64,000 bases of DNA, taken from the NCBI GenBank assembly GCA_051313645.2, contig JBNRSN020000018.1, positions 35,154,001 through 35,218,000 of the forward strand, written 5' to 3'. Below the pieces are notes generated by a model. It did no database searches. It had not been told where the DNA came from and saw only the letters and a list, made by a program, of their open reading frames with translations. Source of the stretch: Centroscyllium fabricii. Its lineage: Eukaryota. Below are positions 15,471-42,500 of the stretch, piece after piece. A program made the position numbers and the translations under genes. The first letter of the stretch is position 1, and each line of letters opens with the position of its first letter.

Positions 15471-15696
15471 AGCATGATTGAATCTGTTGAATTGCTCATC
15501 TTGTGTTCATGGCCAGCCTCAAAGTACTGTGGTCCCTGAATGGCTACAGTGCAGCTGGTGGCCTCTGTATTTCTAGAGTTCAGCCACTCAATAAATGTGA
15601 TTGTCCCCTCCCAAGATGTGGACACCTTCCCAGAGATATTTTTCCTGGTCTGAGGGACCCTCCTGCCTCAGTGGCCGTCTTTAGTGTGGCAGTAAG

Positions 15697-18600
15697 TGAT
15701 GTGCCATCAATAACTCCCAAAAGTCTAAGAGTTAAACTTATAACAAGTAGGCTTTTATTAACAAAAGAATACGAGCATGCCTCTGCTGGTAGACTGATCC
15801 TTAAAGCGATGGAGACTGGAGGTCAATCACCTTTATACCTGGGTTTAGGGCTGGAGCCAGGGGCGGAGCCAGCTGAGGCATGCCCAGACATGTTCTGTAC
15901 AGGCAGATTAGTGGTTTACCACATTCACCCCTGGTTTAAAATGAGTCCAGCGGGGTGAAGTGTCTCAGAAGTTCGTATAGGCAAGTCTCTCCGGGGGTCT
16001 TGTCCGCCGTAGTGACGGTCGTGTTGCCAGCTGTGGCGGTTCTTTTCCCGCGTGGGCTGGAGCACCAGTGTGTTGTCTTCGTGGGTGCGGGGTCGGTGGG
16101 TGTATAAGGGTGGGTCACAGGGCCCTGGCGTGCCGTCTACTTGGGTTCGGTGTGGATTCCCTTCTAGGGGTGTGTTGTGGGTAATGGTAATGGTGTTTTC
16201 GGTGGCACTTGAGGGTGCAAGGTCTCTTATGGAGACAGTGTCCTCCCACCCATCAGGATACGCCACGTATGCATATTGTGGATTGGCGTGGAGGAGGTGG
16301 ACCCTTTCGACCAGGGGGTCTGTTTTATGGCTCATGAGCTTCCTGAGCAAGACGGGCCCTGGAGACGTCGGGCATGGCGGTAGCGATGTCCCCGAGGTGG
16401 ATTTCCTAGGGAAGACGAACATTTTCTCGTGAGGGGTGGCTATTGTGGCGGTACAGAGTAGTGACCGTATGGAGTGAAGCACATCGGGGTGTACTTCTTG
16501 CCAGCGGGAGGTTGGGAGGCCTCTGGACTTTAAGGCTAGCATAGCGGTTTTCCACACTGTCGCGTTCTCCCTTTCTACTTGTCCGTTACCCTGGGGGTCC
16601 TGCTCGTGGCTACCCCTTTTTCGAGCAGGTACTGGCGCAGCTCGTCGCTCATGAACGACGAGTCCCTGTCGCTATGGATGAAGCTGGGAAAACCGAATAT
16701 GGCGGAGGTCATTGAGACATTTGATGACTGTTGCGCTGGTCATGGCCGGGCTGGGGATAGCGAACGGGAAACTGGAGTACTCGTTAATGATGTTGAGGAA
16801 GTACGTGTTGCGGTCAGAGGAGGGGAGGGGCCCTTTAAAATCTACGCTTCGGCACTCGAGGGGGCGGGCGGCTTTTATCAGGTGCGCCCTGTCTGGCCTA
16901 TAAAAGTGCAGTTTGCATTCGGCACAGACTTGGCAGTTCCTGGTCATGGTCCTGACCTCCTCGATGGAGTATGGCAGGTTGTGGGCCTTAATGAAGTGGA
17001 AAAACCTGGTGACCCCCAGGTGGCAGAGATCGTTGTGGAGGGCCTGTAGCCTATCGACCTGTGCGTTGGCACATGTTCCACGGGATAGGGCGTCCGGGGG
17101 CTCATTAAGTTTCCCGGGCTGGTATAAGATATCGTAATTGTAGGTGGATAATTTGATCCTCCACCGCAATATCTTGTCGTTTTTGATTTTGCCCCTCTGC
17201 TTGTTATTGAACATAAATGCTACTGATCGTTGGTCAGTGAGCAGGTGAAGCGTTTACCGGCCAGGTAATGCCTCCAATGCCGTACAGCCTCCACTATAGC
17301 CCAGGCCTCCTTTTCGACTGAAGAGTGTCTAATTTCGGGACCCTGGAGGGCTCGTGAAAAGGCGGCCACGGGTCTCCCCGCCTGGTTATGGGTTGCGGCC
17401 AGGGCAAAGTCGGATGCATCGCTCTCCACTTGGAAAGGGATGGACTCGTCCACGGTGTGCATTGTAGCCTTTGCAATGTCCTCTTTTATACGGGTGAAGG
17501 CTGTATGGGCCTCTGCCGCCAGGGGGAAGGAGGTTGCCTTGATAAGGGGCCAGGCTTTGTCCGCGTAATTGGGCACCCATTGGGCGTAATAAGAGAAAAG
17601 CCCCAGACATCTCTTCAGGGCTTTGAGGCAGTGGTAGTTCCAGAAGGGGGCGCATTCGGTCGGGGCCGATGACTCCGTTTTCCACTACACAGCCAAGGAT
17701 AGCGAGGCGGGTGGTGCGAAACATACTTTTCTTTGTTGTATGTCAAATTTACGCGCTGGGCTGTTCGGAGGAATTTTTCTAGATTGGCGTCATGGTCCTG
17801 CTGGTCATGGCTGCAGATGGTGACATTGTCCAGGTAGGGAAAAGTGGCCTGTAGCGCGTTCTGGTCAACCATCCGGTCCATCTCCCTTTGGAAGACTGAA
17901 ACCCCATTGGTGACGCCGAAGGGGACTTTGAAGAAGCGGCCGTTTGCCTCAAAGGCAGTGTACTGGCGGTCTTCAGGTCAATGGTAGAGAATACCTGGTA
18001 CTGTGCAATCTGATTGACCATATCAGATATGCGGGGAAGGGGGTATGCGTCTAATTGGGTATACCTATTGATTGTTTGACTGTAGTCAATGACCAGGCGC
18101 TGTTTCTCGGCGGTCTTAGCGACCACTATTTGGACGTCGAAGCTGGTGGCCCGCACCGCTCACGCGTGGCTGGTGATGTCCAAGATGCTGGCCCGCACGG
18201 CTCACACGCGGCTGGTGGTGTCCAAGATGACGACCTGCATGGCTCACACGTAGTGCTGCTGGAGTTAGGGGTCGGTTTCGCCCTGCACACTTTGGCATAG
18301 TGTCCCTTCTTTCTGCATTTGGAGCAGATCGTGTCCTTCGCCGGGCAGTATTGTCTGAGGTGCTTGGCCTGGCTGCAGAAATAGCACTTTGGGCCGCTGG
18401 ACATCGCAGCTGTAGTTGGGCTGCTGGCGGGCCGTGGTGGCAGCCTGTGGCCTTACCGTGTCCCAAGATGGCGGCTCCTGCGATATCCACGGGGCGGAGA
18501 GGGCCGCATGGTCAGGGGAGTAGGCGTCCATGTTTCGGAGGACTACGTCCAGCGAGTTAGCAAGGGCCACAGCCTTCTGCAGGTCGAGCCCACTTTGCTC

Positions 18601-19279
18601 TAGCAGTCTCTGCTGAGTGTAGCTGGACCGGATGCCAGCGACGTAGGCGTCTGATTAGGTCATCAGTATTTTCCGTGGCCGTCACTGATTTGCACTTGCA
18701 GGCCTGGCCGAAGACTGTGCCCGTAGGTATTAGTCACCCGATTCCCTGGGTTGCTGTTTGCGGGTAGCCAGGCGGTGTCTAGCGTAGACCTCGTTGACTG
18801 GCTTAGTATATTCTTTTAGTATCGCAATAGCGTCCGTGTAGGATGCAGCGTCTTGGATAATTAAATATACTTGGTGGCTCACCCGTGAGTTCAGTACTAG
18901 CAGTTTGTCGGCTTCGGTCCTGATGGTAGTGCTGGAGGCCTGCAGGAATGCTTCAAAGCAGTTCAGCCAGTGCTCGAAGTTATTTGATGCATCTGCTGTT
19001 TGAGGGTCCTGTTCCAGGCGTTCCGGTTTCAGGATTTGCTCCATTTCAAAACTTTTTGTTCATAAAATTGATGTCATCAATAACTCCCAAAAGACAAAGT
19101 TAAACTTATAACAAGTAGGCTTTTATTAACAAAAGAATATGAGCATGCCTCTGCTGGTAGACCGATCCTTAAAGCCAGGGGGACTGGAGGTCAATCGCCT
19201 TTATACCTGGGCTTAGGGGTGGAGCCAGCTGAGGCATGCCCGGACATGTTCTGTACAGGCAGATTAGTGTTTTACCACA
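15697..19279 (-). mobile_element. Ty3/Gypsy LTR retrotransposon (Mag-like), degenerate, protease region deleted
   Basis: LTRs 19069-19279 (5') and 15697-15923 (3'), TG...CA ends, GTAAG TSD at 15692-15696 and 19280-19284. Gag start MEQILKPERL at 19044, two CCHC knuckles, RT (RLVIDYSQTIN, YLDNV), RNase H (ESDASDFAL, SSVEKEA), integrase (HHCC, VDFKGP, GPY-like end); frameshifts and stops throughout. Confidence 0.95.
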
Positions 19280-19547
19280 GTAAGCATTTCCGTTACAAAG
19301 CCACCCCTGGTCAGACTGCTCCAGTACTTGTGCGATGGGCACAAGTGTGCGCTTCCAGCAGTAGTCAGCAATCTGGAGCCGGAATGCTATGTTATGCTCG
19401 TGTGCTGAAGGTGAAAGTTATTCCTTTAGTGTACTTGTGTGTTGTATGCCTAAATATGACACCCACTTACACACTGGAACTGAGGTAGGAGGATATGTTA
19501 AATGAGTTGGTGGTGCAGTGGTTAGCACTGCTGCCTCGTACATCTGT

Positions 19548-28338: not shown

Positions 28339-31300
28339 CTGTGGAGACAAGTCAGTGTCAGGATTAAAGGATGGTAAATTACCACTTTTCAGAAGATTGC
28401 TCAAGGCAAAAGGACACCCTGTGCAGAAGAATGGAAGATCGTCTGCTCTCAGCACCTGACTAGCATAAAGCACCCGAGATACAGACAAGCATAGATCAGT
28501 TGGGCCGAATGGCCTGTTTCTGCTGTACATTCTATGCAAGCGCTGCTCAGTCTCTGTTGCTGGGATTCTTGACTCAAAACCAACTCCCACCTCAGTCAGA
28601 TTTCACATGAGCCTTAAATACATCAATTGGAACTGGATCAAACAGCTTCAGTTTAACTTAGGCCAAAGAGTACAAGAGATTCAATTCTGGGGCCCACAGG
28701 CAATGGCAAAGGGTTTGACTCACTGTCTTCAATCCTACAATTAATTGTTTTGTAATTTTCCTCTTTAAATAAAAAAAATGGGGCTGGTCAAAACTGCCAG
28801 AAAGTCCTTCAACTCTAATAGATCAGAGTGCACCCAAACTATGATAGGATTAGACTGTTACAGTAACCCAGCCACAGCAAAGAAAGAAAGGACTTTCATG
28901 AGGCCAGGTAGTCCCAAAGCACTTTATATCCAATTAAGTACTTTAAGTATGGCCACTGTTTTAATGTCAGCAAACATGGCAACCAATTTGCACACAGCAA
29001 GGTTCCACAAACAGCAATGTTAAATGACCTGATTATTTTTAAATAATGTTGATACAGCTGAGGCGGCTGCCATTTGGCCCATTGTGCCTGTTTTTTGAAA
29101 GTCCCATTCCCCTGCTCTTTCCCTATAGTGCTACAAATCTTCTTCGCAAGTATTTATCCAATTCCCTCTTCGAAGTTAGTATTGAATCTGCTTCCACCAG
29201 CCTTTCAGGTCGTGCATTGCAGATCATAACTTACTGTGTAAAAAATAATTCTCCTCATCTGCCTCTCCTAGTTCTTTTGCCAATCTAAAGTGGTTCCTGA
29301 GGGGAGGGATATTACTGCTGGGAAATGAAACATTCCCATTTCAGGCAGCCAGTGTCAGGTATAGCACAGGTCGGACACAGAGTGGAGATCCGCTCCGCTG
29401 GCTCATGTAGAGCACCCTTTGTACAATGTGACATTTCCCCACATCACCAGTGTGGTAACCGTTGTATGTATTGCAATTACCACCATAATATTGTATCCAA
29501 TATTATCTGTACGTATAGCGGTCGGGTGCATGATGCAACGGTCCTGTGTTGCGACACTGTCGTGGGGCCAGGTCAGCCACACCTCTAACTCCTCCCCTCA
29601 GGTGAGTGCCTTATAGGTGGGGACTGACCGGCCCCCATTCATTCTGTACCTGATGTTCGATCGGAGCGTAGCTCCATTGTAAGCTAATAAAAGCCTGGAG
29701 TTAAGGTAACTACTCGTCTTTAGTTTTATTAGATTATTGACGATACGTCAACCAGTTCCCCATGGCCTCCAGTCAAAATGCCAGCTTAGTGCTGTGGGAT
29801 TGTGTTCATTAGGAACTGGATCAAGTTGCCCTCTTTATCCAATAGCTGCAGGTTGGATATGAATCAGGGAGGGGGGGGGGGGGGGAAGGGCAGCGTGCTG
29901 ACCCATTGCACCACTCACTCCCTCTGTACCCAAGTCACTATTCTATTCTAGAATGCAGATAATCCAGGATGTGGCGAGTCTCACTACTCCATCTGAAGTC
30001 GCTCAGATCTGGCAACTGCACAGGTTACTGTTTGAGCCTGGTTGCTTATCTTGAGCCAAAGCAGATCCCACCAGTTGTTGGAATGTGACCGTATTCCATT
30101 CCAGAGACTTGAGCACAAAGTCCAGGCAGACACGTCAGTGCAGTAGAGGGAGTGCTGCTTTGTCGGCGGTGCCATCTTTCAGTTGAGACGTTAAACCCAG
30201 GCCCCATCTGCTCTCAAGTGGATGTAAAAGATCCTATGGCACTATTTTGAAGAGCAGGGGAGTTCATTCTGGTGTCCAGGCCAATATTTATCCTTCACCC
30301 AACATCACAAAAAAGTGACCTGGTCATTTAACAGTTTGTAGGAGCTTGCGGTGTGCAAATTAGCTACCACATTTCCTAAATTACAACAGTGTCTACAGTT
30401 CAAAAATACATCATTGGCTTCAAAGCATTTCAGGACATCCTGAAAGGCACTATATAAATGAAAGTCTTTATTGGTAAGTGGTTAGGACACAGGCTTGTAC
30501 CCTTGCTCAGCATAGGGCAGAGAGCATGTCTCAGTTACTGGTCGGGCTACAAATAGAGTACGTGCTCGGTCCTGTGCGACTTGGACAGAATGACTGACTA
30601 AGTAAATGCAAACAAGACCATTGACCAAACATTTGATTACATCACTTGCGTAGAGGTGTAAGCAAACACAACTCACTGCCCCTCTCCCCTGGTGTGGGTC
30701 TCTGCAATATGTATTGTACGGTTTCACAAGAATCATGCGGAATCTGTTACAAGTCCAAGAACCACATATTTTATTCCTCTATACAGCTCAATAAAGAAAG
30801 TCAACCTACCCTGGAAATAGTCACACTTGCCATCCATGAAGATATAGTTCATTAAGATGACACTGAATATTGACGCCCAAAGGTGGAGATCACTGAAGAG
30901 CAAAGTAAAGCCTACAGGCTAATCAAAAGCAAATGGCACATGGTCAGTACATGGGCAGTCAAAACCATTTTCTTTGCACAAAGTTTTTACATCCAGACTT
31001 CCCAAGCTCCACCTTACACAAGCTAGTTTGTTCAAAACTCTGCTGCCCATACTCTTTCCTAGATTACATGTTATCAGCCCTTTTCTCAAACTTTTAACAG
31101 CTCCCATCCATAATAGTGAATTCAAAATCCTCATCCTGGCGTACAAATCCTTCCAAAGCCTTGCCCCCACCACCCTCCCTCACCTCCTCTAGCCCTAGAT
31201 GCTTCCACCAAATCTGGTTTCCCTCCCATAGAAACATAGAAGATAGGAGCAGGAGTAGGCCATTCGGCCCTTCGAACCTGCTCCGCCATTCAATGAGATC

Positions 31301-39500: not shown

Positions 39501-42500
39501 CCTCTGCTCTTGGGGGCACAGAGGCCCACTTACAATTGGCTTCAGGATTGAGCTTTAAATGGCCACGTTATTCTACTCAAATGAAGAGTGCTGCTCCCAC
39601 CCAGACCACTGCATCACATCAATGACATTGTGTGAACTCAAAGATAAATCCATATTTAGCACCGAGCTAGCAAGGCTCTTGTTTGGGGGGGGGGGGGGTC
39701 TATCCATGGCATTTTTGAGAGTGTGTTGGTCAACAATCAATTCAGATGTTAAAAGTCAGTCAGTATGTGACATCTGCCTCGCCACCTACCTCCCACGGAT
39801 ATGAAGAGCAGCGCTGAACTGATGCCAGCTGACCTACTGTTGAACCTCTGCTCCTGGTGCTTACATCCTCCGATCACCATGGATATACCCTGGTGGACAA
39901 ACAGCTCGTCAGTCTCTGGTCTTAAGCAAAAAAAAAAGTACCACAAAAAGCACAGGATTTACAAAACTGCCATTTGCAGAATTCTTATTTAAATAGTGTA
40001 TAAAGTTTCTTCACTGTTTAGCAGGGAATCATCCAACGGTCCATGCTTCCCCCCCACCCCCCCACCACTTTGCCACATAAGGGGATTTGAGTACAGGAGT
40101 AGGGAGGTGTTGCTACAGTTGTACAGGGCCTTGGTGAGGCCACACTTGGAGTATTGTGTGCAGTTTTGGTCTCCTAACTTGAGGAAGGACATTCTTGCTA
40201 TTGAGGGAGTGCAGCGAAGGTTTACTAGATTGATTCCCAGGATGGCCGGACTGACATATCAAGAAAGACTGGATCAACTGAACTTGTACTCTCGAGTTCA
40301 GAAGAATGAGGGGGGATCTCAGAAATGTTTAAAATACTGATCGGTTTAGACAGGTTAGATGCGGGCAGAATGTTCCCAATGTTGGGGAAGTCCAGAACCA
40401 GGGGGCACAGACTAAGGATAAGGGGTAAGCCATTTAGGACCGAGATGAGGAGAAACCTCTTCACCCAGAGGGTGGTGAACCTGTGGAATTCTCTACCACA
40501 GAAAGTTGTTGAGGCCAATTTACTAAATATATTCAAAAGGGAGTTAGATGTAATACTTACAACTAGAGGATCAAGGGATATGGCGAGAAAGTAGGAATGG
40601 TGTACTGATGTAGCATGTTCAGCCATGAACGCATTAAATGGCGGTGCAGGCTCGAAGGGCCAAATGGCCTACTCCTGCACCTATTTTCTATGATTCTATA
40701 ACCCAACTTCTTTCGTTTGCTTCAGTATCCCGTTGTCAGATCACCAGCTCGGTTGAGGAAAGCCATGCTAGCGTTTCGTCGTCTAGAGCAGCTATGCCGG
40801 CTTCGCCGTTGGGTGGTCGATGTTTTAGACATGACTCGATAATGTGATCGACTGTCTGTTCAGGGTGACCACAGTCGCAGACAGCCGAGTCCCTGAGTCC
40901 CCATCCTTTCATGGTCGCGGCGAAACGGCCGACACCAGTCCTGAGGCGGTTGAGCATTGTCCACTGCCGGCGAGGGAGGTCCATGCCCAGTAGTTCATCC
41001 GGCTCCTCCACAAATCTGTGCAGCCTTGATTGATCTGCTGCCTGCCATTCCTTCGTCCAGCGGCGTTTGAGCCAGGTTCGTTTTGTGACATCACCGGATG
41101 TTGAATGCAGGAGCTGGTGGGCGTGCTCCGCGAATGGTCGTCGTGACTTCAGGCGAGCTCGTGGAGGGATCTCTGTGACGAACTTGTGGAGAAGGTGGTC
41201 CTCATCGTTGGTGGCTTTTCGGGACAGTGCAAGGACAGCTGCTTCACGGCGCAGGGTTGGTGGTGCGATGCCGGCGAGTATCGGTAGTTGGTTGACCGGC
41301 GTGGCGCGCAGGCAGCCAGAGACTGTGCGTAAGGCGGTGTTGAGCGTTGTGTCCAGCTTCTTGGTGTGGGAGCTCCTGCACCAGACTGGGGAGCAGTACT
41401 CGGCGGCGGAGAAGACCAATGCCTGGGTGGAGATGCGTAGTGTCTTGGTCGAGGCACCCCAGGTGGTACCAGCTAGGCGGCGTATTAGGGCGACGCGGGC
41501 CGATGTCTTGGCGGACAAGTTTTCCAGGTGTTGGCGAAACGTCAGCGTGCGGTCAAGCTTGACCCCGAGGTACGTCGGGGCAGCCTGGAACTGGAGTCTG
41601 TTGTTGTCAACCATGATGTTGAGCTCGTGGCTTGCCTCTCGGTTGTTTAGATGGTATGCGGAAGACATGGTCTTGGCCACGGAGAGCTTAAGGCGCCAGT
41701 TTGTCAGGTAGCTTGACAGGATGTTCATATCAGCCGTAAGCCCCAGTTCGATCGTCTCCCAGCTCTTGTTGGACGGAAGAATGGCGAGGTCGTCAGCATA
41801 TCCATATTTCTTGGACAGCGTGTCTGGGAGGTCGTGGATGTAGATGTTAAACAACATCGGGGCGAGTACGGAGCCTTGTGGGACGCCATTTTTGAGTCGT
41901 CGGAGCCTGCTATGTTGGCCGTTGCTGGTGTGAAGGGTGAAGCTGCGGTTGGTTAGCATCTCCATGATGAAGCCCACCATGTGTCGGTCCGGGATCGTCT
42001 GTAGGAGCTTGAGGTGGAGTCCACGGAGCCAGACGGTATCGTACGCTGCTGTGAGATCAAGGAAAACGACGCCCGCCTTCTCACCTCGTTGGAAGGAGTC
42101 CTCGATGTCTTGGGTGAGGAGGGTTACCTGGTCCACGGTGGACTTCCCGTGGCGGAAGCCTGCTTGCTCTTTCGGCAGTATTGGGTCGATCACCGGGTCG
42201 AGGCGCGCATGGAGGAGACGTTCCATGATCTTGTATGGCACGCAGAGAAGGGCGATGGGGCGGTATCCCTTTGGGTCATCCAGCGACTTGTTGGGCTTCG
42301 GGAGAGCGATGACCTTAGCTCGTCGCCATATCTTCGGGAGCTTGGACGTGCGGAAGCAGAGGGAGCAGAAAGATCGAAGCCACTCTATGGCCTTGCTACC
42401 CTGGTGCAGGATGAACTCGGGGTGGATGTTGTCAATCCCAGCTGCTTTGTGTGGCTATAACCCAACAATGTACTTGAACTCGACAGAACACAAGTCACGG

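Follow-up and report, generated by a model that had tools for sequence, protein, structure and literature searches.

Priming of reverse transcription without a tRNA has so far been tied mainly to the Tf1/sushi chromoviruses, which use the 5′ end of their own RNA as primer. In Tf1 and Tf2 of Schizosaccharomyces pombe, and in Tf1/sushi chromoviruses including Tj1, Tosmo and the plant element Tcn1, there is no tRNA primer-binding site (PBS), and the PBS, placed right behind the 5′ LTR, has its complement in the LTR of the element itself, with flanking stems beside the duplex (PMC10085805 and PMC6317226, in the parts drawn on here). For Tf1, the self-primer:PBS duplex with its flanking stems is described as a 'pretzel' (PMC10085805, in part). 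Self-priming was also predicted from LTR complementarity outside the chromoviruses, for the TAR lineage of Ty1/copia (Houba, Osr-1), which belongs to a different superfamily and host range from the element described here; the part of PMC6317226 drawn on does not tie the primer of that lineage to the poly(A) signal. Skipper of Dictyostelium and the fungal GalEa Copia elements likewise have no canonical PBS, and unconventional priming was proposed for them: for GalEa a hairpin, but in the internal domain, while Skipper has a polypyrimidine stretch without a complement in the LTR (PMC5006619 and PMC6934838, in part). The shark element analysed here resembles the Tf1/sushi elements in what appears to be self-priming (PMC10085805, PMC6317226, PMC3601003 and PMC11042837, each in part). 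It differs from them in that the complementary segment is probably internal to the RNA, about 40 nt from the predicted start, and ends in a poly(A) signal. In the literature searched, which leaves most subscription papers and Repbase outside, we found no Gypsy element described as priming from its poly(A) signal, so that a prior description is possible.

The window, that is the whole stretch of 64,000 nt analysed from the Centroscyllium fabricii assembly, contains a decayed Gypsy element on its minus strand, in which LTRs, target-site duplication (TSD) and polypurine tract are recognisable, gag has an early stop and pol is in fragments. The LTRs bounded by TG...CA, the TSD and the polypurine tract are those of a Ty3/Gypsy element. 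The 5′ LTR of 211 bp (19069–19279) is flanked by the TSD CTTAC (19280–19284, second copy at 15692–15696) and has a TATA-like box (19200–19205) 78 nt upstream of the motif AATAAAA. The 3′ LTR of 227 bp (15697–15923) adjoins the polypurine tract (15924–15932) and is 87.7% identical to the 5′ LTR, with indels. The start of gag (18730–19044) has about 104 open codons before a premature stop, and broken remnants of pol (approximately 15980–18130) comprise RT, RNase H and integrase-like pieces; all these features are on the minus strand. In this copy Pfam detects no domain other than RNase H; it finds the domain order PR-RT-RH-IN in the sister copy L063 and in the relative L233. A solo LTR of a sister family, with the TSD ACCAG, is located on the plus strand at 29451–29750. 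Elsewhere in the window, a 572-aa open frame (40736–42454, minus strand) appears by eye to encode a LINE-type reverse transcriptase.

A preliminary description of this locus had reported that the element lacks a tRNA PBS, that the gag ATG follows 25 nt into the leader, and that an inverted repeat at the end of U5 may serve as primer. The first two statements hold. The leader begins ATTTTATGAAC at 19068, has no TGG, and the ATG is at its base 25 (19044). TGG is missing in all 30 loci of the family to which the window copy belongs (family A; the best 30 of 40 scored matches, window copy included) and in all 5′ junctions of the solo-LTR family. A PBS deleted from this copy only does not account for the absence, since the leader is common to all 30 family loci. 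No TGG-type PBS was found within 5 nt of the LTR in any of 68 pattern-selected junctions of this genome or in five relatives selected by their RT.

Folding of the 5′ LTR together with the leader revealed a feature of Tf1 type that the preliminary description had overlooked: the leader pairs over 13–15 bp with the LTR segment that ends in AATAAAA. In the window copy this predicted self-primer segment comprises 14 nt (19121–19134, minus strand, poly(A) signal at its end), and its reverse complement occupies the PBS position, +2 to +15 of the leader (19054–19067, minus strand). Of the 14 pairs of the duplex this copy has 13, and a perfect 14-bp duplex from +2 is present in 19 of the 30 family loci. 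The G at leader position +8 of the window copy, shared by 2 of the 30 loci, is a decay letter. The 3′ LTR carries a copy of the segment as well (15753–15766, minus strand), and no complement follows it. The segment of the solo LTR (29680–29692, plus strand) differs in its letters from that of family A, and we predicted before testing that the leader in the family of this solo LTR would differ as well, so as to match the LTR of that family. This was borne out: among 30 fetched loci, every locus that reaches the gag start has a 13-nt complement, one of them with a single mismatch.

In order to see how common this layout is, we searched the genome for AATAAAA followed after 35–65 nt by TCAATTTTATT. 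The pattern was matched 48,112 times with a non-A as the next base and 71,420 times with A, compared to 73 and 21 matches for the reversed patterns (94 in total). Thus, at least 119,532 5′ junctions with the duplex layout are present in the 7.2-Gb genome, and the clade is likely to be a major contributor to genome size.

Covariation was determined in 68 pattern-selected junctions (the first loci of both searches, five others, and L001, L002 and L032). The search pattern forces pairs 1–7, and pairs from 8 on are free. At pairs 8–13, 390 of 408 cells were Watson-Crick, 4 were G-U and 14 were mismatches. The hexamer formed by these pairs was perfect in 53 of the 68 junctions and occurred in 16 different kinds. 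For the 23 distinct LTR hexamers, 125 of 138 positions paired, while 10,000 shuffles averaged 72.6 and never exceeded 92. Pairing dropped beyond pair 13 (pair 14 in 32/68, pair 15 in 23/68). In 26 representatives, 98.7% of the duplex was paired; 40 changes were two-sided and none was one-sided, counts that are inflated by relatedness and come from a hand-picked set; it was the sole helix predicted by RNAalifold for them. Its mean predicted pairing was 0.84, exceeding 0.7 in 60 of 67 junctions and reaching at least 0.79 in 25 of the 26 representatives. In the predicted folds, the duplex closes a structured loop of 23–75 nt. The trinucleotide GCC directly after AATAAAA, which may help to determine the cut site, is nearly invariant in most junctions and also occurs in L072, L233 and L238. 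Just 5′ of the segment there is often a short hairpin, and L082, L130 and related abundant families have a splice-donor-like GTAAGT just before AATAAAA that other families do not have.

A wobble test at one C/T pair gave 28,791 Watson-Crick combinations in 29,001 junctions, with 104 G-U and 106 C-A. G-U is thus no commoner than a mismatch, which fits neutral decay of copies that were born perfect, and hence a primer that is copied into the PBS. The absence of a G-U excess is also compatible with strict selection for Watson-Crick pairs. In a test for templating at one pair, a double change within the same copy was seen in a single case genome-wide (L094/L114, C1 ~1602268–1602349), where the 5′ LTR segment and the PBS were changed by complementary transversions. 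This case is not diagnostic of templating, since the 3′ LTR keeps the family letter, and the change possibly arose by inverted-repeat template switching in DNA.

The same arrangement was found in relatives beyond this genome. RT homologs numbered 1,237 at E ≤ 1e-40, and the named ones among the 120 matches listed come from sharks, rays, cnidarians, a damselfly and a nematode. RT-similarity scans yielded 4 loci in metagenomes and 7 in GTDB, and no relatives were found in viral contigs. Of these 11 loci, which were selected by RT and not by the pattern, five have a gag start with upstream DNA (L072, L232, L233, L236, L238); L234 ends inside gag, and L071, L073, L074, L235 and L237 are without a gag match. 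Perfect duplexes at +2 are present in L233 and L236 (14 bp each), L232 (13 bp) and L072 (12 bp), and L238 has a decayed duplex (9/10). In L233 the signal reads ATTAAA and the PBS TTTAAT, so that the hexamer itself contains a compensatory change. The distant L073 (31% RT identity) has TGG after ACA. L232, L233, L234, L236 and L238 are animal-type Gypsy elements inside bacterial MAG records, probably as host DNA contamination. Motifs resembling 3′ splice acceptors (a pyrimidine run and AG) were noticed at or shortly before the primer segment of the non-host relatives (L072:100–128, L238:2750–2780, and in L232, L233 and L236); they could mark an LTR intron or a trans-splice site. A primer formed across a splice junction was considered and rejected, as no convincing donor was found to extend the duplex in L238 or in L072, which is truncated.

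Tf1/sushi elements usually carry a chromodomain, at the C-terminal end of integrase. No chromo family was detected in 6 proteins at E ≤ 0.1, nor was one among the precomputed domains of the 120 homologs among the matches listed, and for this reason we do not file the shark element under Tf1/sushi. A quick RT tree, built without named reference RTs, grouped the rows with the duplex in a single branch (support 98) that excludes L073 and L117; L235, which has a long branch and no junction found, fell inside this branch, and the clustering did not reach significance (85 of 500 shuffles). The gag translation of L063 contains a double CCHC knuckle, which we take to be a feature of the Mag lineage and Cigr-1 clade. 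The short LTRs and the single ORF of about 1,200 aa presumably also resemble Cigr-1. Cigr-1 is placed under Mag in a supplementary row of PMC6238403. The ESM Atlas gave generic gag clusters only.

From the sequence and the folding models, we favour with moderate confidence the view that the duplex of the leader and the poly(A) segment is a tRNA-free, Tf1-like self-primer for minus-strand DNA, formed by the 5′ copy in cis. That the duplex serves self-priming in some form, be it with the 5′ copy, the 3′ copy or a downstream start, seems to us very probable. The duplex covers the only place where a primer can bind. A TATA-like motif lies 72–79 nt before AATAAAA in 61 of the 68 junctions, and an initiator-like motif about 44–52 nt before it in most of them. 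This spacing suggests that the segment is internal, starting about 40 nt downstream of the RNA start. The 5′ copy of the segment would pair in cis with the PBS and thereby make the 5′ AAUAAA inaccessible for polyadenylation; the 3′ copy lacks a partner, and its poly(A) signal would stay usable. The element's RNase H would likely cut just 3′ of AAUAAAA and leave a 3′-OH, as that of Tf1 does at its own duplex. Reverse transcriptase could then copy base +1 and U5, and strand transfer would rely on the short region that separates AAUAAAA from the 3′ cleavage site. During plus-strand synthesis the PBS would be rewritten from the primer, by which exact complementarity would be kept. Two points count against priming by the 5′ copy in cis. 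Unlike in Tf1, the RNA is predicted to begin upstream of the primer, so that either a capped primer of about 55 nt or a second cut would be needed. Furthermore, the homology left for the first strand transfer would be only about 10–30 nt.

Taking these data together, we tentatively suggest that a large, chromodomain-less clade of animal Gypsy elements, with at least 119,000 5′ junctions in this genome, has evolved a switch for self-priming whose primer terminates, at its 3′ end, in the poly(A) signal. A single duplex of 13–15 bp would silence premature 5′ polyadenylation, provide the primer after an internal cut and be re-templated into the PBS in each cycle; rare LTRs in which AATAAAA adjoins the start of the predicted cDNA may be fossils of the primer-DNA joint. 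If true, this would be a second architecture of self-priming, with an internal primer that doubles as poly(A) signal and couples the choice of the 3′ end to the initiation of reverse transcription. It would also make a very abundant repeat of this genome independent of host tRNAs and of silencing by tRNA fragments, and such elements would be misjudged by tools that require a tRNA PBS. As the cut site and the start of the cDNA are predicted to the base, the claim is directly testable.

It is less likely, although worth serious consideration, that the primer is the copy in the 3′ LTR. The genomic RNA would circularise, the AAUAAAA segment near its 3′ end would pair with the PBS and be trimmed or cut to a 3′-OH, and the whole 5′ R would stay free for strand transfer. 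The same segment is present in the 3′ LTR, the covariation data fit a 5′ and a 3′ primer equally, and a 3′ primer would offer longer homology for strand transfer. However, the 3′ copy must displace the 5′ copy, which is made first, lies 50–60 nt from the PBS and folds with high probability, and the poly(A) tail has to be removed together with the bases that precede it.

An improbable alternative is that the duplex only masks the 5′ poly(A) signal and that a protein or another RNA primes. In HIV-1 the poly(A) signal is occluded by structure, the polyA hairpin masking the signal at the 5′ end, and in retroviruses the U5-IR stem adjoins the end of the primer. The shark element is similar in having a stem by the predicted primer end and, in our model, a 5′ signal masked by structure. 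Retroviruses are primed by a tRNA, whereas the masking partner in the shark element would be the PBS itself, at the 5′ end only. Masking alone has this precedent and agrees with AATAAA or ATTAAA always being within the paired segment, but it would not require the duplex to start always at +2 or to end sharply at 13–15 bp, should tolerate G-U, and leaves the element with no other primer site before the ATG.

We give even less weight to a mechanism identical to that of Tf1, in which a second, downstream transcription start makes the RNA begin with the segment of 13–15 nt. This would account for the fixed length of the duplex, and alternative start sites of retrotransposons are, judging by its title, the subject of PMC5341516. 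The TATA-like and initiator-like motifs upstream of AATAAAA speak against it. A start about 67 nt after the TATA-like motif would be needed, which is unusual in vertebrates.

Priming by an internal tRNA fragment or another host RNA is very unlikely: half-tRNA primers are known in Ty1/copia lineages (PMC6317226, in part), but here the leader tracks its own LTR through 16 different perfect hexamers, so that a separate matching host RNA would be required for every family. The best match between the leader and tRNA genes was 6 nt, in a comparison with an Rfam set that covers just two isotypes, Lys(TTT) and Cys(GCA) (32 genes, 11 distinct).

Equally remote is priming by a snap-back of the hairpin at the end of U5, as the preliminary description had suggested; its wider proposal of self-priming remains the best explanation, while the local hairpin as primer is unsupported. 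The inverted repeat itself is real. It reads ATTGATG-A-CATCAAT at 19081–19067 (minus strand, feature 19067–19081), and the other LTR ends are also as described, TGATG-GCA-CATCA for the 3′ LTR and TGACG-ATA-CGTCA for the solo LTR. The 1-nt loop exists in the window copy, but is a private deletion, as 29 of the 30 family loci have two more bases (24 GCA, 3 ACA and 2 other variants). Since a loop of 1 nt cannot close, the window copy folds as 6 bp with a 3-nt loop, at only −1.7 kcal/mol. The repeat in this genome exceeds chance: a stem of at least 7 bp, with G-U allowed, is present in 58 of 67 junctions. The covariation proposed for it was confirmed with 12 two-sided and 4 one-sided changes in the 26 representatives. 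However, the hairpin is weakly folded in family A (predicted pairing of 0.13 in the copy L002), reaches 0.8 in 7 of the 26 representatives only, and is missing in all four distant relatives tested (L072, L232, L233, L236). Snap-back copying would also be expected to invert the loop and would seem to have no route to rebuild the junction of LTR and leader. A genome-wide search for inverted loops gave 4 matches versus 61,097 uninverted junctions, and two of the 4 were the other strand of deleted LTRs, leaving 2 true inverted junctions; the near absence of this product argues against the hairpin as primer. The hairpin occupies exactly the site at which DNA synthesis would begin, and is likely an accessory stem beside the primer end, comparable to the U5-IR.

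LTRs in which AATAAAA is fused directly to the terminal hairpin arm were noticed at L205, L212, L219, L221, L222 and L231 (match ~1501). Among 61 matches with a shortened U5, the commonest class (13/61) joins AATAAAA straight to TTGACG, the letters of the predicted joint between primer and cDNA. As a trace of priming these joints are suggestive and ambiguous, given that a DNA template switch on the inverted repeat yields the same product. Seven of the AATAAAA-TTGACG matches were fetched, and proved to be six deleted LTRs from several families and one inverted junction. The leader follows none of the six deleted LTRs, and five of them are flanked by a matching 5-bp TSD.
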